A stretch of DNA of 64,000 nt from an uncultured Actinomycetes bacterium (GTDB lineage Bacteria; Actinomycetota; Thermoleophilia; Solirubrobacterales; 70-9): NCBI GenBank assembly GCA_963740625.1, contig CAVUEV010000006.1, positions 30,957 to 94,956 of the forward strand, written 5' to 3'. Position 1 is the stretch's first letter, and every line of letters begins with the position of its first letter. Below the pieces are notes generated by a model. The model did no database searches. It had not been told where the DNA came from and was given only the letters and a program-made list of their open reading frames with translations. The translations under genes and the position numbers were made by a program. Of the stretch, positions 5,365-43,656 are shown one piece after another.

Positions 5365-5402
5365 AAGGCCCTTCCCGGCGTGGCCCCAAGCCGAGCGACG
5401 GA

Positions 5403-5495
5403 CTAACCGGCATCGCCGAGCGCCGGGAGAGTGACAAGAGGTGTCGTTCCGGAGCCGCAGATGCCGGCGACCTTCTGAATGTGCAGCACTCTAAA
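5403..5495 (-). pseudogene. relic of the 5' end of a GT4 glycosyltransferase gene
   Basis: Translates FRVLHIQKVAGICGSG..LPALGDAG* versus MRVLHIQKVAGIGGSE..LPGLADAG of the gene at 3021..4148. The ATG position reads TTT and a stop follows after about 30 codons. Flanking DNA is also homologous. Confidence 0.6.
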
Positions 5496-5542
5496 AGCGT
5501 GCCGAGTACGATTCCAGGACGGTTGAGAAGCCCGCTTGGACG

Positions 5543-28570: not shown

Positions 28571-29774
28571 TTAGCGCTTGGAAGGGATCTTCGAGTCCGC
28601 GCAGATGGCGTAGACGCGGATTTTCAGGTCGCCGCCGGCGAGGTTGTCGACCTCGGCCTCCCAGCCAGTGGCGCCGCCCTGAATGCGCGTGGCCGCGACC
28701 CGCTGGTCGAACCACCCGCCGTTGCTGAACACGCCTCCGCCGGTTACGTGCTGGCCGTTCGGGCAGTTCGCGTCGCCGGTCGTCCGCTCCTGGTGCGGAT
28801 TGCCGATCGCGTTCGACTCAACGACCGTGAGGGCGAGCGAGGGGATCGAGCCCGCCTCGCCCTGCGGTCCGGTCGGGCCCGTGGCCCCACGGGGGCCCTG
28901 GGGACCGCGCCGACCGCGGTGGTGGCGGTGCTTCGCGGCAACCTTCGCCGTGGGGGGCTTCAGCGTGCAGACCGGGTAGATCACGAGCGGCCCAGTGTCC
29001 GCCGTGACGCGGTCCTCGGCGCCAAACCAGCCGGATGTTCCGCTCGGCCCGGTGCTGTTCAGGTACGAGTGGTTGAACGGGCCGGGGGCCGACGCCCCGC
29101 CGCCGATTATCTGCTCGCCGTTCGGGCAATCCTTGAAGGCGGGCGTCTGGGTCTGCGGACCGGCGTCGAAGCTCGCAACCGGATAGTCGAGTTGAAGCGT
29201 CGAGGAGCCGGGATCCCCGCGCGGTCCCGCAGCGCCCTGCGGCCCCGGGGGGACCCGGCCGGCCGCGCTTCGAGTCCGCTACCCGAAGCGAACGCGCCTG
29301 ATGGCTTTTCGCCGGGCAAAGCTGGCCCAGGCAAACGACCGTCGATGGAGCGCAGATCGCGTGGACCGTGAAGGTGCGAACGATCGTGTCGTTGACGTTG
29401 TCAACGTAGCCGGTCCAGGAGCTGCCGTCGCGGGCAGGGAAGCTCGAGTTCACCCACTGCGTGAACTTGCCTCCGCTCGTGATCACGCCCCCGCCCGTCA
29501 CGTGCTCACCGGCAGGGCAGGTGGCAGTTGCGAAGTTCTGCTTCCCGGGAGCGTTGTTCACTGGCCCCGTCTTGACGTAATCGAGCGCGATTCCCCCGGG
29601 CTTGCCGGGAAGCCCCTTCGGGCCCGTCGCGCCCTGTGGTCCGGGCCGCCCCCGTGGGCCGCGCTTGCCGTCGCCGGCGGCCGCCAGCGCAACCCCCGCC
29701 AGCACCATCACCGCGACGAGCAGGGACGCGAGGGTCGCGCGGCCCAGGCGGCTTCGATTCGAGGTCCCGCTCAT
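28571..29774 (-). pseudogene. secreted three-module collagen-like / CPxG-TGGG domain protein, one frame interruption
   Basis: Signal peptide from ATG 29774. Modules carry CPAGEHVTGGGV, CPNGEQIIGGGA and CPNGQHVTGGGV. The frame changes inside a Gly-X-Y run at 29243-29246; removing one base gives an uninterrupted KRGRPGPPGPQGAAGPRGDPG. Confidence 0.8.
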
Positions 29775-29784
29775 CGCATTCGAC

Positions 29785-30948
29785 CTACTCGGGAAGCTCC
29801 GATGGAGCGCAGATCGCGTAGACCCGGAAGCTCCACTCCTGTTTTCCGAAGTTGTCGATGTCCACTTCCCAGCCGGTGGCACCGCCTGTGGGGCGAGAAG
29901 CGCCGACGTCCTGCTGGTCCCAGGGGCTGAAGCTCGCCACGCCGCCGCCGGTCACGTGCTGGCCGCTGGGGCAATCGACGTGCGCGGTGATGCGCGTGTT
30001 GACGGGGTTCGTGACCGTGCGGGTCTCATAGGTCAGTGGGAGCGAGGAGATCGACCCAGGCGCCCCCTGCGGGCCCGCCGGGCCGGTCGCGCCCTGAGGG
30101 CCCTTGGGCCCGCGCCGCCCATGGTGATGATGCCGCCCGTGCTTCGCCTCGATGCCCCGCGCCCGCTTGGCAGTCGGGGGCTTCGGCGTGCAGATCGGGT
30201 AGACGACAAGCGGCCCGGGGGTCTCGGCCACGCGGTCCTCCGCCCCGAACCAGCCGTCCGTGCCGCTCGGACTGGTGCTGTTCAGGAACCCCACATGGAA
30301 GTCACCGGGCGCCGAGGCGCCGCCACCGATTACCTGCTCGCCGCTATCGCAGGGGGCCGTGGAGGAGGTCTGCTGCCGACCTGCGGCGTCGACTGTCCTG
30401 AGCGGATAGTCGAGCTGCAGCGTTGACGAGCCCGGGTCCCCGGCCGGGCCCGGCGGTCCTTGGGGACCGCGCGGCCCCCGGCGCCCGCGCTTGGCCTGCC
30501 GGATCTGGCCGGCCTTGGGCGAGGCGGCCTGCGACGGCGCGCAGATCGCAAAGACCGAGAACGTCTTGGCGGTCCCGGTGTAGTTGTCCACGAAGACGCG
30601 CCAGACCTGGCCGTCGTCCGCCGGGAAGCTCGAGTTCACGCCCTGCTGTCCGAAGGCGCCGTCGGCGAGCACGCCACCGCCGGTGGCGTGCTCGCCTGCG
30701 GGGCAGGCGGCCTCCCCCAGCGTCTGCTGCGCCGGGACATTCGTGATCGGGCCGCTCTTCACGTAATCGAGCGCGATTGCGCCCGGCTCCCCGTCCGGCC
30801 CCTTCGGCCCCTGTGCGCCCGGCGGGCCCTGCGGGCCGCGGGGCCCGCGCTTCGCCTCGGCGAGCGTCGCTCCCGCCATCACCAACGCGGCGAGGATCAG
30901 CGCCAGGCCCAGACGCCAGGGAGCGATTCGCTTCGACGGACGGTCCAT
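29785..30948 (-). CDS. secreted three-module collagen-like / CPxG-TGGG domain protein
   Basis: Signal peptide. Three units of a basic linker, 5-9 Gly-X-Y triplets and a roughly 95-aa domain (CPAGEHATGGGV..FAICAP; CDSGEQVIGGGA..YPICTP; CPSGQHVTGGGV..YAICAP). His-rich linker AKHGRHHHHGRRGPKGPQG. Confidence 0.85.
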   Translation of the reverse strand: MDRPSKRIAPWRLGLALILAALVMAGATLAEAKRGPRGPQGPPGAQGPKGPDGEPGAIALDYVKSGPITNVPAQQTLGEAACPAGEHATGGGVLADGAFGQQGVNSSFPADDGQVWRVFVDNYTGTAKTFSVFAICAPSQAASPKAGQIRQAKRGRRGPRGPQGPPGPAGDPGSSTLQLDYPLRTVDAAGRQQTSSTAPCDSGEQVIGGGASAPGDFHVGFLNSTSPSGTDGWFGAEDRVAETPGPLVVYPICTPKPPTAKRARGIEAKHGRHHHHGRRGPKGPQGATGPAGPQGAPGSISSLPLTYETRTVTNPVNTRITAHVDCPSGQHVTGGGVASFSPWDQQDVGASRPTGGATGWEVDIDNFGKQEWSFRVYAICAPSELPE

Positions 30949-30964
30949 GGCTCGCGCGCCGATC

Positions 30965-33900
30965 CTAGTCGCCCTCGACCGAGTCCGACTTCACGCACAG
31001 GGCGATCACCTGGGCCGTCTGCGGGTTGCCGCTGACCGCGTCGATGAAGCCCTGCCAGCTCTCGCCATCCGGGCCCGGAAAGCTCGAGGCGACCTCCTCC
31101 TGGCGGTAGGTGCCGCCAACGCGGATGCCGCCACCGGTGACGTGCTCGCCGGCCGGACAGTCCACTCTGGCGAACACCTTCGCGCCGGGCTGCCCGATCT
31201 GGTTCGGGCCGGGATCCACGAAGACGTTCTTGAAGACCGTGTGGATCACGATCGGCGGCGTGACCCCATCCGGGCCCGTGGCGCCCTGCGGCCCGGTGGC
31301 GCCCTGCGGTCCCTGCGGTCCCGGCGGCCCCCTCCGGCCGCGATGGTGGCGGCGATGATGGCGACCGTGGTGCTTGGCCACCCGATCGCCGCCGGCTCGG
31401 CTCGGTGCGGCGTCAGGCTCGTTGGTCAGGTTCGACCGCACGCAGACCGCGTAGACGGTGAATGGGAGGTCCTTATCGGAGAAGTTGTCGACGAAGACCT
31501 GCCACTTGGTGGTTCCAAGCGCCGTGCTGCCGTTGATCCACTGCTCCTTGAGCGCTCCGGAGTTGAGGACGCCGCCCCCGGTGACGTGCTCGCCCTTCGG
31601 ACAGGCGACGGTGCCGCTCGACTGGGCCTGAGGCGCCGCCGTGAAGATCTTGCTCACATAGCGCAGGGAGACCGCGCTGGGCCCCGCTGGCCCCTGGTTG
31701 CCGCGCGGCCCGGTCGCCCCGCGCGGCCCGGCCGGCCCCTGCGGCCCGCGCTTGCCGCTCGCGGCCGTCGAGCTCGCCCTGACCTTGCTGGCCGTGCCGA
31801 TGGTGCAGATCGCCGTCACCTGAAAGCTCCCATCCGTGCCCTGGACGTTGTCGACGTCGCCGAGCCAGCCGTCTGGACCGATGGTCGAGCCGTTGATCCA
31901 TTGTTGCTCGAAGCCGCCCGAGGCGGCGACGCCGCCGCCGATCAGGACCTCGTCCTCGCCCGCGCAGCCTCGCTGGCCCTCCGACCGTGCGAGGCGTTGG
32001 GACGCGAACGTCTGCCTGTAGTAGCCGAGGGCCAGCGGCGCGCTCGCCCCGGCGGGGCCCTGCGGCCCGGGAGCGCCGGCCGGCCCCTGGGGACCCTGCG
32101 GTCCTCGCGGGCCGCGCTTGCCCGAGTCCGCGCCCGATGCCGCAGCGCCGAACGTCACCGCGAGGAGCGCCACGAGGATCCAGTGCGGCCCGACGAAGCA
32201 CGTTCCCGAGCCGCTGTTGGAGTTGTTGCCCTCGTTGCTCTCGGCGACGACGTTGGTGGCGTCCGCAACCGCGGTCGCGCTGTCGCTGCCGTCTCCGCAA
32301 CCCACAGAGACGGTCGTGCTCGCGCCCGCCGCCAGGGCCGCGGTGTCGATGAGCGTCGAGGGGCCGTTGTCCTGGCTGATCCGCGTCTTGCTCGGCCCGG
32401 CGTCACCGTCTCCGATGTTCTTCACCGTCGCCGAGATCGTCCCGCTCGCCCCGGTGCCGGTCACCGACACGTTGGTGACGGTCAGGTCCGGCCGCGTCGA
32501 GGCACAGGTGACCGGCGCGCTGGCCGCATTGTTGAACTCGTTGCTCTCGGCGACCGCGTTCGTGGCGTCGGCGCGTGCGCTGACCGTGATCTGGTTCGGG
32601 CCGGGGCACGCGAGGAACACGGTCGTCGACCCGCCGGGATTGAGCGCCGGCGTATCGGCCTGGCTCTCGGCCCCGCCGTCGAAGCTGTAGCCGAGCGCGC
32701 TCGCGCTCGCGGGCGCCCCGCCGACGTTGCGGACGACGACGGCGATCGAACCCGGGGACCCCGTGATCGAGTCGACGATTAGATCGGGGGTGGCGGGCGG
32801 CGGCGGGGCGGTGCAGTTCGCGCTCGCACGTCCGAATTCGGCGTAGCGGATGTCCTCAAAGTCGTTCGGGGTCCGTGAGCCGGGAACGCCCTTCTTGCTC
32901 GCCGAGCCGGTGCTGACGAAGCACTGCGGCTGGCTCGGATCCGATGCGAGCCCGAGGTAGTCGTTCTCGGTGCTGCCCACCAAAGATGCCCGGCCGCCCT
33001 TCGAGATCAGCGCCGTCGCCCAGTCGACCAGGAAGCCGACGGCGTAGGACGGGTAAAGGGCCGGGCCGCCGTACTCGTAGCCGACCGCGAGCTGGCCGGC
33101 CGTGTTCGCGCGAACCTGCGGCAGCGCCGCGCCGAGACCGTCGAACTCGATGCTGATGCCCGCCACCCGCTTCAGCGGCCGAATGTCGCTGTTGATGAAC
33201 ACGAAGGTCAGCGCCGGCTGGTCGTGAACGTGGACCGTCTCCGTCTTACCGTCCTTGACGACCCGCGCGTCGCGACCGGACATCCATCCGAAGACCAGCG
33301 TGTTGCCGACCTGGGCCCCGGTCTCGACAACCCCGACCTGCTTGCTGTAGCGCGACATCCAGTCGACCCCCAGCGGGTCGTTGCTGCCCTTTCCCTGGGT
33401 GGGGATCGAGGAGACGTCGACCTCGTGGATCTGGACGTCGCCGCTTCCGTCCGGCCACTCGAAGACCTGGAGGCGGCTGGTGCTCGCCGCCCCACCGAAC
33501 CACTGGGTCCGGGGCGCCTTCTTACTCGTGAACGCGCCCTGCGCGGGCCGGACCTTGCCGACGTCCGAGCTCGGGACGAGCAGCCAGTTGTAACTGAACT
33601 GTCCGGCACCGAGCTTGGTGACCGGGATCCGCCACATGGCGGTGCCCAGGAAGCCGCCCTTCTTGCATTTCTTGCTGCGGTAGCCGCTCGCGGTCACGTA
33701 CAGGTTCGCCCTGGTGAACGCGATGTGGGGCCGATCCAGAAACGGCTGGATCGTGCTCCTGCCCGCTGACGTGCCCGCGCACTTCGTGGGGAAGCGGAAA
33801 TTCGCCGGCGTCCAGTCCGAGTAGGTCCAGCGCGTGCCCCCGGAGGCGAGGAACTGGGCTGTGGTCGCGGAGGCGATTCGGACGACATTCGACTTGCGGT

Positions 33901-34649
33901 CGTTCGCCACGCCGCCAGCCCCGGCTCGGTACTGAAGGACCCAGACGAACCGGTGCACCCGCGGGATGTAGGCGACCACCTGGTCGCAGCAGAAGCCGCC
34001 CGCGGCGTTCGGGAACACCCGTCCCGGGTCGAGCGGCGTGAACGTGTTGCCGCCATCGGTCGAGTAGGCGTCCTGGAAGTTGCTGGTGACGAAGACCGTC
34101 TGGCCCGTGGTGGCGACGCTCGACTCGCCGCCGTCGGTGTCCGACCAGCCGGCGAGCCCGCTCGCCCTGAGGCTCCTGCTGCGGGCCACCCCGATGTCGC
34201 CCACCTTCGGGATGCCCGCCGACTTGCCCTCGGGCTCCTCCGAAGGCGTCGGGGTGGGAGTCTCCTGCTGCTTCGGCTGCGCGATCAACGGGCCGGCGGG
34301 AAGCTTCGGGGCGCTCTCCTCTCCGGGATCGCCCTCGTCCTCGTCGCCACCGCTCTCCGGCGGCTCCGGGTACGGCCCGTTGGCGACGTGCTGGGAGGTG
34401 TCGGCTGTGAACGTGGACGGCCACTCGGTCGGTCGTGCGGTCCCGCGGGCACCGCGCCGGACTCGGCGAGAAGCCGTGCCGCTTGCTGTTTCGGTGCCGC
34501 ACGCGCCGGCACTTGCGGTTGCCGTGATGCCGGTGGTGGTGATGATGGTGGCGATGCTTCGCGACCGGCGTGGGGCTCGCCTGCGCGGAGAACGCGGCGA
34601 CCGCGGTGATCGCCGCGACCAGCAGGCCAAGGATGAGGCGCCTCTCCAT
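30965..34649 (-). pseudogene. large secreted protein: His-rich N-terminus, Asp-box (BNR-like) region, 2x CARDB, then a three-module collagen-like / CPxG-TGGG unit; frame interrupted near the 5' end
   Basis: The signal peptide and His run (MERRLILGLLVAAITAVAAFSAQASPTPVAKHRHHHHHH) start at 34649 in a different frame from the 1308-aa ORF, joining near 34430-34470. YSTDGGNTF Asp-box. Two PDL.V...V.N.G....ESNE.NN CARDB-like domains. Modules CAGEDEVLIGGGV, CPKGEHVTGGGV, CPAGEHVTGGGI. Confidence 0.7.
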
Positions 34650-34670
34650 TGCTCGAACCCTGCACCAGGG

Positions 34671-34703
34671 GCGTTTCCGTACCGTTTCCCTTGCGTTTGC
34701 GTC
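34671..34703. promoter_or_regulatory. three direct heptamer repeats with exact 11-bp phasing (GCGTTTCCGTA / CCGTTTCCCTT / GCGTTTGCGTC)
   Basis: Located in the 90-bp divergent region between the ATG at 34649 (minus) and the ATG at 34740 (plus). CGTTT starts at 34672, 34683 and 34694. Confidence 0.4.
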
Positions 34704-34739
34704 CGACCCCGGCCGGGCTCTGGCTCTAGGATCACATCA

Positions 34740-37015
34740 ATGGCAGGCGGCCAGCCACCGCTCGACAGGGCCCAGGGGGAGCTCGGCAGCGCCCTCCCCG
34801 CGTACGAGATCGGCGCGATCCTCGGGAGTGGCGCGTTCGCCGTCGTCTTCGCGGCGCGCCACCGCAGCCTGGATCGGGAAGTGGCGATCAAGGTCCTGAC
34901 GCCTGCGCTCGTGGCGGACGAGGAGGCGCGCGAGCGCTTCGCCGTCGAGGCGCGGCTGCTCGCCTCGCTCGATCACCCGCACGTTGTGCGCGTCTACGAC
35001 TACGTGGACACGGAGTCCGCCTGCGCCCTGGTCATGGAGCGGATGCGAGGGGGCACGCTGGCGGATCGCCTCAAGCTCGGGCGGATGCCGGTGCCGCGCG
35101 CCTGCGCGATCACGGTCGCGGCGCTTCACGGCCTCGAGCACGCCCACCGCCACCGGGTGCTGCATCGCGACATCAAGCCCGAGAACCTGCATCTTCGCCG
35201 AGCGAGAATCTCCTCAAGGTCGCCGACTTCGGGATCGCCAAGATGCTCGGCGCCGGCGGCGCGCGGCTGACGGCGACGGCCGGCCGGCCCGGGACGCCCG
35301 CGTTCATGGCTCCCGAGCAGGTCTCCTCGTCGCTCGGCCCGCTCTCGTCGGCAACCGACGTGTGGGCGATGGGCGCCGTGCTCCACGAGCTGCTGGCGGG
35401 GGTGCCGCCGTTCGCGGACACCCAGGAGGTCGGCGAGGCGCTGCTGCGCCGAGTAACGAGCTCGCCGCCCGCACTCGACGGAGATCGCGCCGGACGTGCC
35501 CGCGCCGCTCGCGGCCGTCGTCTCGCGGGCGCTCCAGCTCAAGCCCGTTGACCGCTACCCGACGGCGGCCGGGTTCGCCGACGCCCTCGAGGAGGCCGCC
35601 GCCGATGCACTCGGCCCGGGAGCGATCGCGGCGACCGGGGTCCCGATTCACCGCACCGAGCCGGTCGAGGCTCCCCCGGACCGGCCGACGCTCGTCGAGA
35701 ATTCCCCCGGGGACCTGATGCCGCCCCCGAAACCCCCAGATGCCGCAGACGCACCTGGGCGCTGCTCGGCGCGGGCGTGGCGGCGGCCGTCGTCGTCCTC
35801 GTGATCCTGCTGGCTGGCGGGGGCGACGGAGGAACCCCGAGCGCACTGGCAGCGCTGCCCTCCCCTCCGCCGGGCTGGCCCACGGACATGGCGCTGAGCT
35901 ACGTCGATCCCATCGACGGGCCCGCCGGCGTGGCGAAGCGGCTTGGCCCGGGAGCCTCGACATGGGGGCTCTTCGACGGTGACGCGGCCGCGAAGACGGA
36001 CTGGAGCCATGATCCGAAGCGCGTCCCGGCCGACTTCGTGCGCAAGTCCGTGCGGGCTGGCGTGTTTCCCTACGCCATCTACTACGGCCTGCGGGCCCTG
36101 GGCCGAAGCGGCCACGCGGACGCCGAAGCCCCCCAGATGAGAAAGACGCTCGTCGACCGCGGACTCATGCGGATCTACTGGGGCAACGTCCGCAAGCTCC
36201 TGCGCTCCCTCGGCTCGACCCACGAGCCGGCGGCCGTGACGATCGAGTCGGGGATGTTCCCCGAGCTCGAGCAGCAGGTCCTCTTCAGCGGCCAGCGGCC
36301 CGAGAGCGTCCAGGCCGTGGTCGGCAGCTCGGGCCTGCCCGAGCTCAAGGGGCTGCCCGACAGCCTCCTCGGATTCGCGCAGGCGTGGCGCGCGCTTCGC
36401 GACCGCTACGCCCCGAAGGTCCTCCTCGGCGTCGAGCTCGACGACTACGGCGACAACGTCGACATCTCCCGCGACCTGCCACCGAAGCCCACGCTGCTGG
36501 CGGCGGCCGATGGCGTCGGCGCCTTCTACCTGGGCGTCGCGGCGAACGACTTCGACTACGCGGGGTTCGAGATGTCCTATTCGGAGGAGGGCGAGAACCC
36601 GAGCCGCACCGAGATCTACTCGACCGCTGAGAAACAGGGCGTGGTCAACTTCGTCCGCGAGTTCGTGCGCCGCGCCGGGATCCCGGTCGTGATCGACAGC
36701 GTGCCGACCGGCAACACCGCCTCGCGGGCGATCACCGACAAGCCCTACCACTGGCGTGACAGCTGGATCCAGTGGCTGGTCGGCGACGACCGGTTCTCGG
36801 GGCTCACCGCGTTGCGCGACGCCGGCGCCATCGGGGTCGTCTTCAGCGCCAGCACCGGGCCCGACGGCACCTGCCCGTGCGATGCCGCCCACGACGGCGT
36901 CACGAACGGCGGGAAGTTCGGCTCACCCTCGACGTCGGCCGACGACGACGGCGGCTACCTCGCCGAGCGGGACGCCGCGATGCAGAATGCGGGCGGCATG
37001 CCCTTGCGCCCATGA
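34740..37015 (+). pseudogene. receptor Ser/Thr protein kinase (Hanks type) with single TM and about 400-aa extracytoplasmic domain; at least 4 frame interruptions
   Basis: GSGAFAVVFAA..AIKVL, HRDIKPENL, LKVADFGIAK, GTPAFMAPEQ, then RCRRRTWALLGAGVAAAVVVLVILLAGG (TM) and a large C-terminal domain. The pieces lie in the frames of ORFs 34080.., 35243.., 35496.. and 35777... Confidence 0.8.
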
Positions 37016-37210: not shown

Positions 37211-38485
37211 ATGAACGGCTTCGGGCGGAATCCAGATCTGCGTCGGCGATTCAGCGACCGCGGAGGGCGCCTGCTCACCGCCTCACTCCTGCTTACGCTT
37301 GCGATCGCCTGCGTGGCCTGGAGTAGCGCCGGCGCGATGCCCGCAAAGCACGGCCGCCATCACCACCACCACAAGCCGAAGCCCGGACCGCGAGGGCCGC
37401 GCGGCGCAACCGGCCCTCAGGGCCCGGCGGGGCCCGCGGGCGCGGGGTCGATCGCGCTCACCTACGTGAGCGCGACGCAGCCCATTCCTGCAAACAGCGA
37501 AGCGGTCAAAGGGGTGCCCTGCCCCCCAGGGCAGTACGCGACGGGAGGCGGCGTCTCCTCAGACGGTGTCTTCAACCAGGTCTACCTGTTGGCCGGGGTG
37601 CCGACTTCCAACACCGGCGCCTGGTACGGAGCCGTGGATAACCGCGACGACGCGACGCACAACTACACGGCGTGGGGTGTCTGCACGCCCCCGTCGACCG
37701 TTACGCAGCCGCCCAAGCCGCAGGCCGCCGGGAGGAGCGTACGGGCAAAGGCCGGGCCACCCGGTCCGCAGGGACCGCGCGGAGCCACCGGGCCACAGGG
37801 CCCACCGGGGCCCAACGGGACCGGCCAGCTCTCGCTGACGTACGTGACCAAGAACGTCACCCCGCAGGCGAACGGCAACGCTTCGGGCACTGCGACCTGC
37901 CCGGCGGGCCAGCACGTCACCGGCGGCGGCGTGAGCTCACCCGCCGACTTCCAGCAGCAGTGGATCACCGACAGCGCGCCGAGCGCGGGCGGGACCGGCT
38001 GGACCGCGGCGGTAGACACGTTCGGCCCCTCCCAGCAGTTCGTCGTCCACGCGATCTGCACAACGTCGACGGTGACGACCATGAAGTTCAAGTCGCTGGC
38101 CGCCGCCCGCCGCTTCTTCGCACGCGAGCCGGCTGCGAAGCGCGGCCCGCGCGGTCCCAGGGGGCGGCGCGGCGCGACTGGGCCGCAGGGCACGCCCGGG
38201 CCATCGACGTCCCTGAGCACGATCCCGCTCACCTACGTCCTCGCCGAGGACGTCCCCGCACCGCACGGGACGCAGAGCGCCGGCGACGTGCAGTGCCCGG
38301 CGGGCCAGAACCTCACCGGCGGCGGGGTGTCCCCCGACGGACTCCACAACGAGAACGCCGTGAACTCCCTCTTCCCGAAGGACCCGGGGACCTGGTCGGC
38401 CGCCGTGGACAACTCGGGCCAGGCCAACGGTGAGAGCTTCGACGTGATCGGGGTCTGCACGCCCTCGACGGTGACCAAGCGCTAA
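37211..38485 (+). CDS. secreted three-module collagen-like / CPxG-TGGG domain protein
   Basis: Signal peptide, AKHGRHHHHHKPKPGPRGPRGATGPQGPAGPAG. Modules with CPPGQYATGGGV..WGVCTP, CPAGQHVTGGGV..HAICT, CPAGQNLTGGGV..IGVCTP. Confidence 0.85.
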   Translation: MNGFGRNPDLRRRFSDRGGRLLTASLLLTLAIACVAWSSAGAMPAKHGRHHHHHKPKPGPRGPRGATGPQGPAGPAGAGSIALTYVSATQPIPANSEAVKGVPCPPGQYATGGGVSSDGVFNQVYLLAGVPTSNTGAWYGAVDNRDDATHNYTAWGVCTPPSTVTQPPKPQAAGRSVRAKAGPPGPQGPRGATGPQGPPGPNGTGQLSLTYVTKNVTPQANGNASGTATCPAGQHVTGGGVSSPADFQQQWITDSAPSAGGTGWTAAVDTFGPSQQFVVHAICTTSTVTTMKFKSLAAARRFFAREPAAKRGPRGPRGRRGATGPQGTPGPSTSLSTIPLTYVLAEDVPAPHGTQSAGDVQCPAGQNLTGGGVSPDGLHNENAVNSLFPKDPGTWSAAVDNSGQANGESFDVIGVCTPSTVTKR

Positions 38486-38614
38486 GCCTGGGGTCGCGGC
38501 TTACCAAGGCTCGCGAAACGCCACTCTCGGCCGCGCCGCGGAATCGAAGCGGCCACGATCCAGAAACGGGATAGGGTCAAGATCGCGTGCCTGAAGGCAA
38601 CCTCTGAGGTGGGA

Positions 38615-39868
38615 ATGAACAGCACCAGGCGGAATCCAGATCTGTGGCAGCGAAGCGACCGGGGAAAGCGTCTTTTCGTCGCTGTGTTTGCGCTCTCCGT
38701 TGCGGTCGCCTGCGTCGCCTGGACGAGCGCGGGAGCGGCGCCCGCGAAGCACGGCCACCATCATCATCATCACCACCACCACAAGCCGAAGCCCGGACCG
38801 CGAGGCCCACGTGGCGCGGCCGGTCCTCAGGGCCCTGCGGGCCCGGCCGGCGCCGGCTCGCTTGCGCTCACCTATGTCAGCTTCACCTCCTCGCCGGCAG
38901 ACGACGAAGGAGTTCAGCCGAGGGACTTCGCCTTCGCGAAGGCCTTCTGCCCGAACGACAACCAGATCGCCACCGGCGGCGGAGTTACGTCGGACGGGAC
39001 CGTGAATGACCCGGTCTACCTCGAAGTGAGCGTTCCGCAGGCTGGCGGAGGCTGGTTCGGAGCGGTCGAGAACCGCGGCGATCAGCCTCACTCCTTCACC
39101 GTCTGGGCCGTGTGCACTCCTGCGACGTTGACCCAGGCAAAGGCAAGTTCCAAGACAGGACCTCCCGGGCCGCGCGGGCCCCGCGGCGCGACCGGCCCAT
39201 CCGGACCGCCGGGGGCAGCCGGTACCGGGCAGGTCTCGCTGGCCTACGTCGCGAAGCAGGTGCCGGCACAAAGCGGCAACACCACGGGGACGGCCACCTG
39301 CCCGGCGGGCCAGCACGTGACTGGAGGCGGCGTCGGGTCGGAGGCAACGGTCGGCAAGCAGTGGGTCACCGACAGCGCCCCGACGGCGGACCGGACGGGC
39401 TGGACCGTGTCAATGGACAACTTCGGCGCACAGCCGCCATTCATCGTCCACGCAATCTGTACAGCCTCGACCGTGGTCGCCGGCCCGGCCGCCAAGTCAG
39501 CCGGCGCCAAGGACGCGAAGCGTGGTCCTCGCGGACCGAGGGGAAGTCGCGGCGCGACCGGGCCTCAGGGCCCTCCGGGCTCCTCTCCCCCGGTCGCCAC
39601 GATCCCATTGACCGAGGTCGCGGCTCCTGACATCCCCGCTCCGGCTCAGGCGCAGACCGCGGGCTCGGTCGACTGCCCGGCCGGCCAGCACGTGACCGGC
39701 GGAGGTTTCATCACGAACGCCAACACGAACAACCAGATGGCTGTCAACTCCTCCTTCCCCCAGGACTCGGACACCTGGCTCGTCGCCGCCGACAACACCA
39801 GCAACGCGGCGCTGAGCTTCGAAGCCGACGCGGTCTGCACGCCATCGCTCGTGGCTGCCAAGCGATGA
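38615..39868 (+). CDS. secreted three-module collagen-like / CPxG-TGGG domain protein
   Basis: ATG 38615 aligns with the paralog start (MNSTRRNPDLW versus MNGFGRNPDLR). AKHGHHHHHHHHHKPKPGPRGPRG. Modules CPNDNQIATGGGV, CPAGQHVTGGGV, CPAGQHVTGGGF. Stop overlaps the next ATG (ATGA). Confidence 0.85.
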   Translation: MNSTRRNPDLWQRSDRGKRLFVAVFALSVAVACVAWTSAGAAPAKHGHHHHHHHHHKPKPGPRGPRGAAGPQGPAGPAGAGSLALTYVSFTSSPADDEGVQPRDFAFAKAFCPNDNQIATGGGVTSDGTVNDPVYLEVSVPQAGGGWFGAVENRGDQPHSFTVWAVCTPATLTQAKASSKTGPPGPRGPRGATGPSGPPGAAGTGQVSLAYVAKQVPAQSGNTTGTATCPAGQHVTGGGVGSEATVGKQWVTDSAPTADRTGWTVSMDNFGAQPPFIVHAICTASTVVAGPAAKSAGAKDAKRGPRGPRGSRGATGPQGPPGSSPPVATIPLTEVAAPDIPAPAQAQTAGSVDCPAGQHVTGGGFITNANTNNQMAVNSSFPQDSDTWLVAADNTSNAALSFEADAVCTPSLVAAKR

Positions 39869-40446
39869 AGCGCATCCGCCCACATCTCACGTACGCGAAC
39901 GTCATGGTGACGCTGCTGGCGTTCGTGGTCCTCGGCGGCGGAGCTTGGGCGATCAGCACCAAGGCCCCGCGGAACTCGGTCAACTCGAAGGCGATCATCG
40001 ACGGCTCGGTGAAGTCGGCCGACGTCAAGGACAACTCGCTGACCGGGGCCGACATCGACCAATCGACGCTCTCCGGCGGTGGCGGTGGCAACGGCGGGCC
40101 GCCCAGCGGCCCGGCGGGTGGCGACCTCACCGGCAACTATCCGAAGCCACAGATCGCGGCGGGGGCCGTGGGCCCGAACCAGCTTCAGGCTCACTCCGTT
40201 CACGAGACCCAGCTCGGACCGATCATCAGGGTGCAAACGGAGAACCAGGGGAAGATAGCCGCCTCTGCGAAGTGCCCGGCGGGCTCGCAGCTGATCTCGG
40301 GCGGCGCATCGACCTCGAGCTCGAACTCCCCGCTGGTCGCCAGCTTCGCGAACTTCGACACCAACCAGTGGCAGGCGTTCGCCGCCTACCAGAACACCAA
40401 CGACCCCTACCTCGACCTCTTCGTCGACGCCTACTGCCTGCAGTAG
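39865..40446 (+). CDS. N-terminally membrane-anchored stalk protein with C-terminal CPAG-SGG domain
   Basis: HLTYANVMVTLLAFVVLGGGAWA anchor, SVNSKAIIDGSVKSADVKDNSLTGADIDQSTLSGGGGGNGGPPSGPAGGDLTGNYPKPQIA stalk, CPAGSQLISGGA ... YCLQ* head. Confidence 0.8.
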   Translation: MKRIRPHLTYANVMVTLLAFVVLGGGAWAISTKAPRNSVNSKAIIDGSVKSADVKDNSLTGADIDQSTLSGGGGGNGGPPSGPAGGDLTGNYPKPQIAAGAVGPNQLQAHSVHETQLGPIIRVQTENQGKIAASAKCPAGSQLISGGASTSSSNSPLVASFANFDTNQWQAFAAYQNTNDPYLDLFVDAYCLQ

Positions 40447-40457
40447 GAGCGAGCGCA

Positions 40458-41036
40458 ATGCGAAAGCACCTCACGTTCGCCAATCTGGCCGCGGGGGCCG
40501 CGCTGTTCATCTCCCTTGGCGGCGGCGCCTACGCGATCGCCACCAAGGCGCCGCCGGACTCGGTCAACTCGAGGGCGATCGTCAACGGCTCGGTGAAGTC
40601 GGCCGATGTCAAGGACAACTCGCTGACTGGGACCGACATCGACCAGTCGACGCTGTCAGGTGGGGGAGGCAGCGGCGGGCCGCCCAGCGGCCCTGCCGGA
40701 GGCGACCTCGCCGGCAACTACCCGAAGCCGCAGATCGCCCCGGATGCGGTGGGCACGAACGCCATCCACGACGGCGCGATCTCCTCGGCGAAGCTGGGCA
40801 CGATAGTCACCGTGACCGCACACGTCGACATCCCACAGAACTCGACCCGCGACGCGTTCGCCACGTGCCCGAACGGGACGACGCTGATCAGCGGTGGGGC
40901 GAACGCCAATCCGACAAACATCGGCGTCACCCTCCAGGCGAGCTTCCCCAACGGCAAGATCTGGTACGGGAGGGCCGACAACCCCGCGACGGAGTTCAGC
41001 GGCGACCTCGACGTGTTCGCGAACTGTCTCCAGTGA
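40458..41036 (+). CDS. N-terminally membrane-anchored stalk protein with C-terminal CPNG-SGG domain
   Basis: Same conserved N-terminal roughly 95 aa as 39865..40446. Divergent head CPNGTTLISGGA ... NCLQ*. GGAG 8 nt before the ATG. Confidence 0.8.
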   Translation: MRKHLTFANLAAGAALFISLGGGAYAIATKAPPDSVNSRAIVNGSVKSADVKDNSLTGTDIDQSTLSGGGGSGGPPSGPAGGDLAGNYPKPQIAPDAVGTNAIHDGAISSAKLGTIVTVTAHVDIPQNSTRDAFATCPNGTTLISGGANANPTNIGVTLQASFPNGKIWYGRADNPATEFSGDLDVFANCLQ

Positions 41037-41049
41037 CGGGACGGTCGAG

Positions 41050-42003
41050 CTAGTTGTAAGACCCGAGCCCGTTGTTCAGCTCGGCAAGCCGAGCTGCCGG
41101 CGGTCTTCGACCGAGGGCGCCGTGGTTGCGCTTGAAGTTGTAGCGCCATAGCCAGCCCTCGAGGGCGGCGCTGCGCTCGGCGCTGTTTCGATAGATCGCG
41201 CCGTAGGCCCAGCCCGAGAGCATCGTGCGGATGAAGCGCTCAGCCTTGCCGTTGGTCTGCGGGCGGTAAGGCCGGGTGCGCAGGTGCCGCAGGCCGAGGG
41301 CTCGGCAGGCGATCGCGTGAACGGTTGAGACGTAGGCGGAGCCGTTGTCGGTCATCAGCGCCTCGACGGTGACCCCGTGACGACGGTAATGAGCCAGGCA
41401 GCGACGCAGGAAGCCGACCGCCGTCGTCGCCTTCTCGTCACCCAAGACCTCGACGTAGGCGAAGCGGGTGGCGTCGTCGACGCAGACGTGGACGAACTCC
41501 CAGCCGTGGCGGCCCTTGCCGGCGTGGCGGCCGCGCCCGCGCCCAAGAACCCGGTGACCGGGATGGTCGATGCGACCGAGCTTCTTGACGTCGATGTGGA
41601 TGAGCTCGCCGGGGCGCGAGCGCTCGTAGCGGACAGCGGGCTCCTGGCCGAGGCGGCCGAGCCTTCACATGCCGACTCGGGTGAGGATCCCCGAGACCGT
41701 GGTCTCCGCCATCGCCAGGACCTCGGCGATCTCGGCGCCGCTCATCCGCAGGCGCCGCAGCGCGCAGATCACGGCGATCCGGTCCTCGGGGGTGCGGTTG
41801 TGGACGCGGTGAGCCGCCGAGGGGCGGTCGTAAAGGCCGGCCTCACCCTCGGCGCGGTGGCGGGCGACCCACTTGCGGGCGGTCGGCTCGCTCGTCTCGG
41901 CGGCTCTCGCCGCCTCGACGAGCGAGAAGCCCTCCTCGTCGACTCGGTGGACCAGGAGCCTGCGCTTCTTCAGGCTGAGCGCAGCGTTAGCGTGGAGCTT
42001 CAT
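41050..42003 (-). pseudogene. IS481-family DDE transposase with an in-frame TGA
   Basis: N-terminal HTH (MKLHANAALSLKKRRLLV...), RYERSRPGELIHIDVKKLGRI, MTDNGSAY, and an rve C-terminus (RPYRPQTNGKAERF). One frame throughout, but a TGA at 41665-41667 splits it. The final TAG lies in the flanking CTAG. Confidence 0.8.
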
Positions 42004-42087
42004 CCGGTTGCCTCCTTGGGGCTGGGTGGGGTAGACACCCCCAGCCTTCAAGGGGGACCGGATGAAACAACGGGCTCAGGGATTACA
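41055..42087 (-). mobile_element. IS481-family insertion sequence (1033 bp) with 6-bp target duplication GCTAGT
   Basis: Terminal inverted repeats TGTAAGACCCGAGCCCGTTGTT (left) and TGTAATCCCTGAGCCCGTTGTT (right, reverse complement). Direct repeats GCTAGT at 41049-41054 and 42088-42093. CTAG is a classic IS481 target. Confidence 0.85.
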
Positions 42088-42088
42088 G

Positions 42089-43225
42089 CTAGTTCCGCAG
42101 CGTCGTTCGGAATCGGTCCGCCGGGGGACTCGCCGCTCCTGGGGCACGGAACAGCAGCTTCTCGTTGCCGAGCTCGACGACGTCGCGGTCCTGAAGCGAA
42201 ATCTCGGCCCCAGGCGCGACTGGACTGCCGTTCACGCGGGTGCCGTTGGTGCTGAGATCGACGAGCACGACTCCGCCCTCGCCGTCGCGGCGGAGCTCCA
42301 GATGCTCGCGTGAGACGGTGGGGTCGTCGAGCACCAGCCGGCGCGACGGGTCCACCCGGCCGCACTCGCGGCCGACGAGCAGCATCGGCTCGATCTGAAC
42401 CACCCACTCGCGCGGGCTCCCGGGGTCAACGACCACCCAGGCCTCTTGCCCGCCCGAGAGAGCACCGCTGCGCAGCAACCGGTCGTGCAGCTCGACGAGG
42501 CGCGGGCTCGGAGCGGTGCCGAGCTCCTCGCGCAGAAGCTGCCGGAGGTCCTCGAAGACCCGCATCGCCTCCGGAACGCTGCCCCGCCTGGCGAGCGCCG
42601 TCATCAGCAGCCGCTGGCCCGTTTCGCGAAGCGGCGAGCTCACGATGATCTCGCGGGCGGCATCGACCGCGACGCCGAGCTCGGCCTCCCCGAGCCCGAG
42701 GGACGCCTCCGCGAGGCACTCGAGGGCGCGCAGCCGATGCTCCGCGATCTGCTCGCGCCGCTCCTCCACCCACGGTCCCTCGAGCCCGACGCAGAAGCCG
42801 CCGCCGGTTACGTCGGAGGCGCGTTCCGCGGCCGAGCGCGCTGCCCGCCAGTCGGATGCGGCAAGGGCGCGTTCGGCGTCGTCGAGCTTCGCCACCGCCT
42901 CCTCCAAGTCGATGGTCGTCTTCGTCGGCAGCCGCAGCTCGAGGGAGGCCTTGCCCTCCAGGGCCTCCGGACCCAGCGCCCGGCGCAGCTTCGAGAGCTG
43001 CGTGCGAAGCGCCGCGTCGGGATCCGGGGGCCGCCGCTCGGGCCAGAGCAACTCGAGCAGCTCATCGCGGCCGACCTGGCGCTCGCGGTTGTCGACCAGG
43101 TAGGCGAGGAGCAACCGCCCCTGCCGCCCGGACGCCTCGGTGTCGACGCGCCTGCCGCCGATCTCGACGCGCAGCTCGCCGCAGAGGCGTGCGTATGAGG
43201 AAGCACCGCTGCCCGCCATCACCAT
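42089..43225 (-). CDS. EmbR-like regulator: OmpR-type winged helix + BTAD (SARP) + C-terminal FHA domain
   Basis: RLLLAYLVDNRERQVGRDELLELLW (wHTH), BTAD region (LMTALARRGSVPEAMRVFEDLRQLLREELGTAPSPRL), FHA (LLVGRE..VSREHLEL..DLSTNGTRVNG). Confidence 0.85.
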   Translation of the reverse strand: MVMAGSGASSYARLCGELRVEIGGRRVDTEASGRQGRLLLAYLVDNRERQVGRDELLELLWPERRPPDPDAALRTQLSKLRRALGPEALEGKASLELRLPTKTTIDLEEAVAKLDDAERALAASDWRAARSAAERASDVTGGGFCVGLEGPWVEERREQIAEHRLRALECLAEASLGLGEAELGVAVDAAREIIVSSPLRETGQRLLMTALARRGSVPEAMRVFEDLRQLLREELGTAPSPRLVELHDRLLRSGALSGGQEAWVVVDPGSPREWVVQIEPMLLVGRECGRVDPSRRLVLDDPTVSREHLELRRDGEGGVVLVDLSTNGTRVNGSPVAPGAEISLQDRDVVELGNEKLLFRAPGAASPPADRFRTTLRN

Positions 43226-43326
43226 CAGGTTTTACAGAAACGTTTTGGACACGTTCCTGAGAGAGGCGACCGCAAGGATTAGCCCATGCGATTCGCACGT
43301 CGGAGTTACCGTGATCATCGGCCTGA

Positions 43327-43644
43327 TTGCGTCGCTCGGTCCTGGCTCCGGCCTGGCTGCCTCTGGCAAGGCCGACGAGCACGACGATCAAGGTCGCCGC
43401 GCACACCGGCAGCGCCGTCGCGGGGAAGCTCAAGTCCTCGCGGGCGAGCTGCAAGGACGGCCGTGTCGTCAAGCTGAAGCGCAAGCAGCCCAGCAGCGCT
43501 TCCGTCGAGGGCTCGGCGGTGAGCGAGGCGAACGGGAGGTTCGAGATCGTCGGCGCCTTCGTTTCGTCGAACAAGTACTACGTCACCGTGGGACCGGAGG
43601 GAAGCTGTAGCGGCGCCCGCTCGGACTACTTCGGGATCGGTTAG
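43327..43644 (+). CDS. small hypothetical (probably secreted) protein; N-terminus unresolved
   Basis: The C-terminal part (KDGRVVKLKRKQ..EANGRFEIVGAFVSSNKYYVTVGPEGSC) looks like a real beta-rich protein. A plausible signal peptide is spread over two other frames upstream (43286-43330). Confidence 0.4.
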   Translation: MRRSVLAPAWLPLARPTSTTIKVAAHTGSAVAGKLKSSRASCKDGRVVKLKRKQPSSASVEGSAVSEANGRFEIVGAFVSSNKYYVTVGPEGSCSGARSDYFGIG

Positions 43645-43656
43645 CGAGGGAGGGAG

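Follow-up and report, generated by a model that had tools for sequence, protein, structure and literature searches.

What are the products of four short, similar genes whose relatives are all annotated as hypothetical, where in the cell do they act, and how have their differing ends arisen? The genes, here called A1 to A4 (Table 1), lie in the window analysed, a 64,000-nucleotide stretch of DNA from an uncultured soil actinobacterium. A first-pass annotation read them as four paralogs, and all four open reading frames are indeed present, on the + strand. Each matches the other three at E 1e-38 to 1e-49 by tblastn within the window, where the same search finds no fifth copy. Their synteny is kept in three other MAGs and their GC3 is 0.84-0.91, and on this basis A1-A4 are genuine chromosomal genes. 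Scans of A1-A4 against Pfam, NCBIfam and PADLOC return zero matches (for anti-phage defence in PADLOC, at E ≤ 0.01), and no Pfam or NCBIfam model covers the relatives. A scan for promoter and terminator consensus sequences is uninformative in this genome of 70% GC.

Table 1. Positions, in the window, of the A genes, their parts and their neighbours
Feature	Position	Strand	Description
Collagen + 2-Cys-module genes (group)	28571..34651	-	three entries below
Collagen + 2-Cys-module gene	28571-29882	-	frameshifted
Collagen + 2-Cys-module gene	29785-30948	-	3 modules
Long ORF	30965-34651	-	CARDB domains, then 3 collagen/2-Cys modules in C-terminal third
S1	37211..38485	+	S2 paralog (56% identity), same three-module layout
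S2	38609..39868	+	signal peptide, His-rich tract, 3 x (7-8 GXY triplets + 2-Cys beta-sandwich module)
A1	39865..40446	+	193 aa; start overlaps S2 stop (ATGA)
A1 leader	39865-39951	+	residues 1-29
A1 shaft	39952-40218	+	residues 30-118
A1 2-Cys head	40219-40443	+	residues 119-193
A2	40458..41036	+	192 aa; AGGAG ribosome-binding site 8 nt upstream
A2 leader	40458-40535	+	residues 1-26
A2 shaft	40536-40799	+	residues 27-114
A2 head	40800-41033	+	residues 115-192
IS481-family transposase remnant	41050..42051	-	HTH/LZ and rve parts in separate ORFs; bounds S1-S2-A1-A2 block
SARP(BTAD)-FHA regulator	42089-43225	-	conserved A3/A4 neighbour
S8 subtilase	43688-44736	+	frameshifted here; conserved A3/A4 neighbour
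Secreted GH5	44655-45965	+	conserved A3/A4 neighbour
A3	45979..46602	+	207 aa; GGGAGG ribosome-binding site; downstream of GH5 gene
A3 leader	45979-46065	+	residues 1-29
A3 shaft	46066-46359	+	residues 30-127
A3 head	46360-46599	+	residues 128-207
A4	46610..47200	+	196 aa
A4 leader	46610-46705	+	residues 1-32
A4 shaft	46706-46969	+	residues 33-120
A4 head	46970-47197	+	residues 121-196

The motifs first described for the four proteins are reproduced in their alignment: a basic residue plus (H/K)LT(Y/F)AN, LG(G/S)GA(Y/W)A and KAP.(D/N)SVNS, followed by GGPPSGPAGGDL.GNYPKPQ(I/L)A, CP(A/N)G, (S/R)GG and a terminal C-L-(Q/K)-stop. Pairwise amino acid identity is 50-69% in the leader, 85-93% in the shaft (alignment columns 36-103) and 29-38% in the head. 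The description of a near-identical 95-aa stalk is therefore slightly overstated: the strongly conserved block is real, but it spans about 66 aa, and the leader before it is less conserved.

The leaders have a basic N-terminus (MKRIR, MRK, MKLVRSK and ..GPRR in A1-A4), L-T-(Y/F)-A-N-(V/L), a hydrophobic core of 11-12 residues, and then GGG-A-(Y/W)-A. Basic residues occur only N-terminal to the hydrophobic segment, so that the predicted topology is N-in/C-out with the head outside the cell. Conserved Cys pairs like that of the head typically mark domains outside the cytoplasm, and we counted this one towards export. The contrast originally drawn between membrane-anchored A proteins and secreted S proteins is not supported, as the A leaders share their basic/hydrophobic/A-x-A layout with the leaders of S1 and S2, and A-x-A is a site of the signal peptidase I type. 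The uncharged span of the A leaders (25-27 residues, ending GGG-A-x-A) takes in two polar stretches, Y-A-N and GGG, and matches that of S1 and S2 (25 residues, ending AGA) in length. No other part of the leader is as well conserved as A-x-A: in 43 sequences, A32 is invariant and A30 nearly so. Judged by inspection, the A leaders have the basic n-region, the hydrophobic h-region and the helix-breaking c-region with small residues at -3/-1 that signal peptidase I requires, which makes cleavage appear at least as likely as retention in the membrane. Three other classes of signal were considered and rejected. At their prepilin peptidase site, type IV pilins and pseudopilins need a G (or an A) in position -1 and an E in position +5, where these leaders have H, R, K or S and N, respectively; the A1-A4 leaders contain no Cys and hence no lipobox L-(A/S)-(G/A)-C; and a Tat signal peptide is at odds with adjacent RR in A4 only and with a consensus of R-x-(H/R/K)-L-T-Y, not (S/T)-R-R-x-F-L-K.

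Generic Sec export does not explain why the LTYANV motif is conserved at 87-96%. In the consensus over 94 proteins, L reaches 96%, T 88%, Y 87%, A 93%, V 93% and F 88%, and the mature parts of these proteins are far more divergent than the leader. The full motif, R-x-[HRK]-L-T-Y-A-N-V ... F ... L-G-G-G-A-Y-A, comes from soil metagenomes, the named cases being MAGs of Thermoleophilia/Actinomycetes; neither a model in Pfam or NCBIfam nor a publication was found for it. A 27-nt DNA pattern of the leader has at least 120 metagenome matches, which give 100 unique complete proteins (≥120 aa). Among the matches listed, the passengers include collagen triplets (17 of the 100), an RLP(S/T)xxEL head (25), the GGDL motif (3) and many others. 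Many small proteins whose passengers differ widely have the LTYANV leader in common. YSIRK-G/S, ESPR and KxYKxGKxW are likewise conserved motifs within an ordinary Sec leader that precede varied passengers, although the A leader motif is unrelated to them in sequence.

The leader could accordingly be read as a dedicated sorting or assembly signal, similar in role to the YSIRK or ESPR signal peptides or to the N-terminal helix that pilins retain; A1-A4 would then be carried by a route of surface display or polymerisation that has yet to be described. The conservation above diverging mature parts, the variety of passengers and the lack of any model or paper argue for this, but no candidate processing enzyme was found, the hallmarks of pilins (G at -1, E at +5), the lipobox Cys and a consistent twin arginine are missing, and the conservation could simply mean that these genes descend from a single family that shuffles fast. 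We assign this reading a low probability. There is a small but appreciable chance that the leader defines a sorting or assembly signal of a new class, with cognate machinery for processing or display, in a very large, undescribed superfamily of small surface 'mini-fibres' of soil bacteria, of which A1-A4 would be four cargoes; such a superfamily would combine period-5 shaft repeats with interchangeable modules of collagen, tail-fibre and lectin-like type.

In the shaft, seven period-5 repeats (xSVxS / ADVKD / xSLTG ...) are followed by a Gly-rich linker, a single GPAGGDLxGxYPxP motif and some five further period-5 repeats. It is one copy of the repeat that makes up the giant proteins of Pfam DUF5907 (PF19264) and many phage tail fibres. 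With a profile of the A family, 49,781 protein clusters are found at E ≤ 1e-3, of which 20,629 also pass E ≤ 1e-10, and the best matches hold up to 35 tandem copies of the unit, with E down to 1e-227. PF19264 scores 57-129 bits in seven of nine sampled multi-repeat matches. It is matched below threshold by 15 of 43 family members (best E 4e-4), and against its gathering threshold of 27 bits A1-A4 give no match at E ≤ 1, nor A4 at E ≤ 10. We know of no structure or function for DUF5907. Our literature search returned no paper on DUF5907, GTYPNP or LTYANV; PF19264 is named once, in a giant-virus genomics paper. The DUF5907 proteins and the phage fibres (PHROG 892, 28023) share with A1-A4 the motif core and its flanking period-5 repeats, whereas the A genes encode one unit as against as many as 35, stay below the Pfam threshold, and begin with a Sec-type leader where the others have a virion-attachment or giant-protein context.

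The period of five also recalls pentapeptide-repeat proteins (PF00805), in which tandem A(D/N)LXX pentads form a quadrilateral beta-helix: in the A shaft, too, every fifth position is hydrophobic, in pentads of the ADVKD/xSLTG type, and designed pentapeptide-repeat proteins are matched weakly. The A shaft, however, has only about 7 + 5 pentads, no Pfam match and no confident beta-helix in the model. As a monomer it is modelled by AlphaFold at low confidence (pLDDT 53-67), and a PDB sequence search with the family profile and a DUF5907 protein finds nothing below E 0.2. The oligomeric state is therefore one that we infer, as the monomer model is poor and no solved structure contains the shaft. 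Phase variation at the Gly run was considered and rejected, as the window genes encode the run by mixed GGC/GGT/GGA codons and not by a homopolymer. Frameshifts at this run in L002 and L093 have the appearance of assembly errors; slippage is possible.

The proposed resemblance of the GGDL stretch to a motif of actinophage tail or fibre proteins is borne out by a Streptomyces phage minor tail protein (E 8e-3), by PHROG tail-fibre families and by more than 100 IMG/VR contigs, which encode the shaft unit in tail-fibre-like proteins. The PHROG matches of A1-A4 themselves, also to tail-fibre families, are marginal; a consensus motif query finds two weak matches in GenBank phages, and the whole shaft finds nothing there at E ≤ 1e-3 (tblastn). 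This shared motif would suit genes for prophage or tailocin tail fibres, or phage-derived exclusion proteins. We consider this reading very improbable: the neighbourhood is free of phage structural genes and comprises a kinase, the regulator, S8, GH5 and an ABC transporter, its sole mobile element being the IS481 remnant; Sec-type leaders stand where virion-attachment domains would be; the chromosomal synteny is stable; and no defence-system model is matched.

The head is a domain of about 75 aa that contains a single pair of Cys residues (CPxG ... C-L-x-stop). The same domain forms the modules encoded by the collagen-like genes, as the first-pass annotation had supposed (hhalign probability 97.6%, E 3.1e-12, 73 columns). 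AlphaFold models of the A4 head (pLDDT about 95) and an S2 module (97.1) both have six strands in identical order, with the Cys residues after strand 2 and in strand 6. The A heads are homologues of the modules in the collagen genes and, like them, are predicted to be six-stranded beta-sandwiches. This two-Cys domain has no model in Pfam or NCBIfam, and a search with the module profile returns 12 proteins and no more. The nearest analogues in the PDB are the C-terminal modules of PCSK9, at TM 0.57-0.63 and rmsd 3.2-4.4 Å, with a probability of at most 0.97 and E of at least 0.47; Foldseek matches are statistically weak throughout, at E of at least 0.07 (A4 model) and 0.47 (S2 module model) against the PDB and at least 3e-3 against viral models. 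Like the A heads as modelled, the Cys/His-rich modules of PCSK9 and the resistin head are disulfide-pinned, six-stranded beta-sandwiches of about 75-80 aa (TM about 0.6). Three PCSK9 modules pack like the resistin homotrimer, and each has three disulfides (PMC9113161); the A heads have one Cys pair instead, with an identity of 12-22% and a Foldseek E that is not significant. Similarities of the head to H-type lectins, pyocin fibres and Ig-like domains were set aside as weak analogies, with no significant Foldseek match.

The homology of heads and modules brings in the collagen-like genes themselves. S1 and S2, with three runs of 7-8 triplets each, score 24-26 bits against PF01391, just below its 27.2 cut-off, and have weak matches to SclA and Lcl. 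The coupling of A1 to S2 by an ATGA overlap of stop and start at 39865-39868 is confirmed. As a general statement, coupling to fibre genes stands for A1 (in the window, L002 and L093) but not for A3 and A4, which belong to a conserved S8-GH5-A-A block. It has been suggested that the A proteins keep an uncleaved N-terminal anchor and that their heads dock the secreted three-module collagen-like proteins head-to-module, tying the coat to the cell. Translational coupling of A1 to S2 and the recurrence of the S-then-A gene order in L002 and L093 are consistent with this; the homology of heads and modules makes mixed oligomers conceivable; and a leader conserved above the level of an ordinary signal peptide would fit a retained transmembrane segment. 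The same leaders, however, match the signal peptides of S1 and S2 in length and layout and have a near-invariant A-x-A end, and A3, A4 and most relatives are not beside collagen-like genes. Moreover, some relatives, such as L107, combine leader, repeats, collagen triplets and two-Cys head in one chain, so that the modules need no anchor of their own in order to act in cis. Anchoring with docking of this kind is, in our estimation, improbable.

The gene before A3 and A4 is GH5 and not a collagen-like gene, and the gaps between GH5 and the A genes are only 7-14 nt. The order of regulator, S8 and GH5 (42089..45965) is the same in L001 and L093, where the IS481 remnant is absent at the corresponding place. 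The S8-GH5-A-A order, kept in the window, L001 and L093, and the weak resemblance of the heads to lectins and other binding modules could mean that the A proteins are carbohydrate-binding accessories of the adjacent S8 protease and GH5 glycanase on a polymeric substrate. A1 and A2 have no such neighbours, however, nor do the distant relatives, which are solitary and outside such blocks, and the head matches no CBM or lectin family. An accessory role is distinctly improbable.

The differing rates of change along the protein bear on how the heads came to differ. Among the paralogs, the shafts have dS of 0.34-0.50, dN/dS of 0.14-0.23 and pS of 0.27-0.37. Given this dS, the conservation of the shaft reflects strong purifying selection and not fresh gene conversion, and recent conversion is ruled out by the pS values together with the absence of long exact DNA repeats. 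The paralogous heads (dS about 1, dN/dS about 0.8-1.1) are saturated, and their comparison is consequently uninterpretable for selection. Between A3 and its L093 ortholog, dN/dS is 0.06 in the shaft and 0.26 in the head (0.15 in the neighbouring GH5). The A heads are under purifying selection between orthologs, and their value of 0.26 rules out gene-wide diversifying selection on them. Orthologous heads are 81-95% identical, the A2 head being 95% identical to that of P0004. Compared with A3, P0002 and P0008 retain 91-94% identity in the leader and 86-94% in the shaft, with only 30-33% in the head, and further head classes are found on the same shaft in relatives. Relatives with the same leader and shaft but unrelated heads indicate cassette swapping. 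Of the conserved stalk with a variable tip that was initially proposed, the exchangeable tips on a conserved shaft are real; the heads, by the ortholog values, are not hypervariable.

We favour, with a probability a little above even, the explanation that A1-A4 are old paralogs encoding exported proteins of three modules (leader, shaft and head), which form short extracellular, probably trimeric binding fibres and whose repertoire arises through duplication and head replacement. The leader would insert N-in/C-out through Sec and would probably be cut after A-x-A by signal peptidase I, retention as a signal anchor being less probable. Outside the cell, the A proteins may form short fibres, probably trimers, an idea based on analogy with tail fibres, with the collagen partners and with the trimer-like manner in which the nearest structural analogues pack. 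The differing heads would be presented as putative binding surfaces, adhesin- or lectin-like, and the repertoire would expand by duplication and swapping of the head downstream of the conserved shaft. BclA, Scl1/Scl2 and Lcl have a similar logic, with a fibrous stalk and a globular, probably trimeric extracellular head. A1-A4 differ from them: they lack GXY triplets, an LPXTG signal and a head of the C1q/TNF-like or DUF1566 type, and their two-Cys head is a different, unnamed domain. The A proteins are members of a very large family, as yet undescribed, of what are probably extracellular binding proteins.

Thermoleophilia and related soil Actinomycetota are abundant and nearly unstudied, their cell surface proteins included. 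The locus presents a modular kit of conserved leader, tail-fibre-type shaft, collagen triplets and two-Cys beta-sandwich head, the parts of which are recombined across thousands of metagenomic genes. Head and leader each deserve a family definition, since no Pfam or NCBIfam model covers either, and the motif in the leader may represent a sorting signal of a new kind. The shaft unit that the A proteins have in common with phage tail fibres suggests an exchange of fibre modules between host and phage. If the heads bind, they would be candidates for adhesion, for cell-cell or cell-substrate recognition, and for phage receptors or decoys in soil.

Four short genes, A1 to A4, encode products of 192-207 aa with a leader, a shaft and a two-cysteine head. 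Their pairwise tblastn matches within the window have E values of 1e-38 to 1e-49, their GC3 of 0.84-0.91 is coding-type in a window of ~70% GC, and good ribosome-binding sites precede A2 and A3; they are four real, old paralogs of this three-part architecture. All the motifs listed in the first-pass annotation are recovered in their alignment, and the ATGA that holds both the stop codon of S2, a collagen-like gene, and the start codon of A1 is real in the sequence. No further copy was found in the window by tblastn; a fifth paralog, P0007, with a variant leader, lies outside it. The nearest relatives of the window are MAGs labelled uncultured Actinomycetes, and farther ones are Solirubrobacterales or Thermoleophilaceae.

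Features of the window, with the gene order around both A pairs listed 5' to 3'
Feature	Position	Strand	Remarks
Coiled-coil-like repeat ORFs	4132-7738	+	two ORFs, 410 and 731 aa
Cellulase-like GH5 paralog	7735-8859	-	secreted
Collagen + module genes	28571-34651	-	start of gene order
Ser/Thr kinase	34080-35718		follows the minus-strand collagen genes; split over two frames
412-aa gene	35777-37015		between kinase and S1; extracellular domain, no Pfam match
S1	37211-38485	+	collagen-like; S1, S2, A1 and A2 consecutive (37211-41036)
S2	38609-39868	+	collagen-like
A1	39865-40446	+	ORF
A2	40458-41036	+	ORF
IS481 remnant	41050-42051	-	HTH/leucine-zipper ORF and rve ORF, after A2
SARP-FHA regulator			after IS481 remnant, ahead of S8
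S8 subtilase	43688-44736		split over two frames
GH5	44655-45965	+	secreted, cellulase-like; operonic with A3/A4
A3	45979-46602	+	ORF
A4	46610-47200	+	ORF; followed by polyamine-type ABC transporter

Among the paralogs, amino acid identity is 50-69% in the leader (dN/dS 0.28-0.79, dS 0.55-1.0), 85-93% in the ~66-aa shaft (dN/dS 0.14-0.23, dS 0.34-0.50) and 29-38% in the head, where dS is ~1 and saturated and dN/dS thus uninterpretable. The conservation of the shaft is a matter of constraint at the protein level. Fresh gene conversion of the shaft was rejected, as no long exact DNA repeats join the copies. The unsaturated comparison of A3 with its ortholog at the related locus L093 gives dN/dS values of 0.06 for the shaft, 0.26 for the head and 0.15 for the adjoining GH5 gene. 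The heads thus evolve about four times faster than the shafts, yet stay constrained. Orthologous heads are 81% (A3 and P0013) and 95% (A2 and P0004) identical. Two other relatives, P0002 and P0008, are 91-94% identical to A3 in the leader and 86-94% in the shaft but only 30-33% in the head, and quite different head classes, e.g., a four-Cys domain, occur on the same leader and shaft in relatives, indicating that heads are exchanged as cassettes. The family is under purifying selection, together with head swapping.

The first half of the shaft consists of seven pentads with a hydrophobic residue at every fifth position (xSVNS xAIxD xSVKS ADVKD xSLTG xDIDQ STL), followed by a Gly-rich linker, the stretch PPSGPAGGDLxGNYPKPQ(I/L)A and about five more pentads. 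The likeness of this stretch to phage minor tail or fibre proteins, which the first-pass annotation pointed out, proved correct: the unit is found in PHROG tail-fibre families (E 1e-3 for A4, 2e-16 for the repeat-rich relative P0113), in a Streptomyces phage minor tail protein (E 8e-3) and in more than 100 IMG/VR contigs. When searched against protein clusters at 50% identity, the family HMM matched 49,781 of them at E<=1e-3 and, at the stricter cut-off of E<=1e-10, 20,629. The best matches have 1,000-5,600 aa and repeat the GGDL unit in tandem up to 35 times. Pfam PF19264 (DUF5907), a repeat model without assigned function, recognizes seven of nine sampled matches; A1-A4 fall below its threshold, and 15 of 43 relatives match it weakly. 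These profile matches identify the shaft as a homolog of the DUF5907/tail-fibre unit. A tail-fibre-like ORF at another locus (L015) carries PPSGAAGGDLTGTYPNPTLA flanked by period-5 repeats. PDB sequence searches found no solved structure holding the unit, and in the AlphaFold monomer of A4 the shaft has a pLDDT of 53-67, with only the head-proximal GGDL..YPKPQI reaching 85-89. Poor modelling as a monomer is probably common among obligate oligomeric fibres. In two other MAGs (L002 1420-1993, L093 8635-9630) the frameshift of A-type genes falls precisely on the Gly-run linker, within G/C-rich runs; assembly error is the most likely cause, and slipped-strand on/off switching a less likely one.

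Profiles of 30 A-family heads and of 14 modules of the collagen-like genes in the window align with an hhalign probability of 97.6% (E 3e-12). AlphaFold models of the A4 head (pLDDT ~95; strands 122-130, 136-141, 147-156, 162-169, 176-182, 187-195) and of the second S2 module (pLDDT 97.1; strands 6-12, 17-24, 29-38, 45-52, 58-65, 72-80) have six strands in the same order, with the conserved Cys behind strand 2 and within strand 6. The heads and the modules of the secreted genes thus have a common predicted fold, the lack of which would have told against the first-pass reading, and profiles and models together show that they are homologous. Foldseek gave no significant structural match for the head or module models. 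The S2 module finds its best PDB analogs in the modules of the PCSK9 C-terminal domain (TM 0.57-0.63 by query, rmsd 3.2-4.4 A), with a probability reaching 0.97 but a non-significant E of at least 0.47; the same target was returned for the A4 model, and viral models give weak matches of the A4 head to small fibre-tip and H-type-lectin-like sandwiches. These likenesses are analogies and give no family assignment. The three PCSK9 modules, which pack like the resistin homotrimer (PMC9113161), are paralleled by the three modules of each collagen-like gene. S1, S2 and the collagen-like genes at 28571-30948 (-) each have exactly three units of 7-8 GXY triplets and a two-Cys module. A His-rich tract, e.g., HGHHHHHHHHHKPKPG, lies directly behind the signal peptide of the collagen-like genes, with similar His runs between modules in the minus-strand genes, and could bind metal.

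The A1-A4 leader comprises a few basic residues, L-T-(Y/F)-A-N-(V/L), a hydrophobic core of 11-12 residues, G-G/S-G and A-(Y/W)-A, the layout of a Sec signal peptide that bears a site for signal peptidase I. Its uncharged span is 25-27 residues, vs. 25 in S1 and S2, which end A-G-A, and of 43 aligned family sequences all have the second Ala of A-x-A and almost all the first. The proposed contrast between anchored A proteins and secreted collagen-like proteins is thus without basis in the sequence, and A1-A4 would be cleaved after A-x-A. Since the basic residues precede the hydrophobic span, the N-terminus is predicted inside and the remainder, including the head, outside the cell; the proteins have the topology of exported ones and not the cytoplasmic head that would have refuted the first-pass reading. 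The leader lacks the signatures of pilins, lipoproteins and Tat substrates.

The leader is nevertheless conserved far beyond the needs of export alone (L 96%, T 88%, Y 87%, A 93%, V 93%, F 88% in 94 relatives). This supports its reading as a dedicated sorting or assembly signal, which we nonetheless consider unlikely. A metagenome scan with one 27-nt pattern coding LTYANVM(A/S)T gave at least 120 matches. Among the matches listed are 100 non-identical, complete proteins no shorter than 120 aa, with a median length of ~208 aa; 99 have a small-x-A site, 25 an RLP(S/T)xxEL-type head, 17 collagen triplets, five a CPxG head and only three the GGDL motif, the remainder having other tips. By this motif A1-A4 belong to a very large leader-defined family, for which no leader model was found in Pfam or NCBIfam and no paper in a literature search for LTYANV. 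In one member (L107) the leader, period-5 repeats, collagen triplets and a two-Cys head all stand on a single chain. The commonest passenger among the matches listed (L098, L100, L105, L108 and others) has ~190 aa and ends ...GRRLPTHGEL...FRCV(A/T)DP(L/I)N, an ending similar to the RLPxxxEL signature found in C-terminal domains of the DUF1566/Lcl type; two examples had no Pfam match. P0007, P0009, P0014-P0016, P0063, P0271 and P0276 carry the same shaft and two-Cys heads behind a leader of a second type, R-(R/H)-P-(S/L)-(P/A)-x-L-(V/A)-I-S...AL(F/I)(I/V)AL(G/S)G(G/T)A.A. A PHROG family of unknown function, phrog_31265, aligns with P0113 from residue 1 (1-149 vs. profile 1-150), so some phage or prophage proteins may bear leader and repeats.

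Gene order at related loci indicates two conserved pairings, S then A, and S8-GH5-A-A. L001 has collagen gene, kinase, regulator, S8, GH5, A and A, the S1-S2-A1-A2-IS block being missing; L093 has S, A, regulator, S8, GH5, A and frameshifted A copies; in L002, A immediately follows S. The suggested coupling of A genes to collagen-like genes therefore holds for S-then-A (window, L002, L093) and fails for A3/A4, which lie behind S8-GH5. Tandem A genes are common among relatives, and distant A relatives are solitary in ordinary chromosomal surroundings. No phage genes occur in the neighbourhood of the A loci, and defence models gave no match.

The IS481 copy lies at the exact border of the block that L001 is without at that position; its transposase is split into two ORFs and the copy is thus probably decayed. 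The kinase, S8 and one collagen-like gene (28571-29882) each occupy two frames here and are intact in L001/L093, probably reflecting indel errors of long-read MAG assembly rather than pseudogenes. In L001 (1640-3904) the kinase is fused to the extracellular domain that forms the separate 412-aa ORF of the window (region 34080-37015); kinase, domain and adjacent SARP-FHA regulator suggest a signalling module conserved beside the fibre genes. ORF 30965-34651 (-) comprises an N-terminal region, two CARDB domains, a hydrophobic segment (GPHWILVALLAVTFGAAASG) that resembles a signal peptide, as if a separate collagen-like gene began there, and three collagen + module units. It may be two genes that ran together when a stop codon was lost, or a genuine fusion. 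The ORFs at 4132-7738 consist of highly repetitive E/A/Q/R-rich repeats (LEAQRAEIERQLSEAAEKAKQGLDQSF), which cause the strong AT and GC skew there. Of the two GH5 paralogs, Pfam was run on 44655-45965.

The observation of the first-pass annotation thus stands, and so do the shared head domain, the phage-fibre motif and the external head in its interpretation; the division into anchored and secreted proteins does not. The A-family leader and two-Cys head are so far undescribed. We infer that A1-A4 form trimeric fibres whose heads would have an adhesin- or lectin-like binding role. The family is of a familiar kind, a fibre on the surface or secreted, which has a variable tip and shares modules with phage fibres and with collagen-like proteins.
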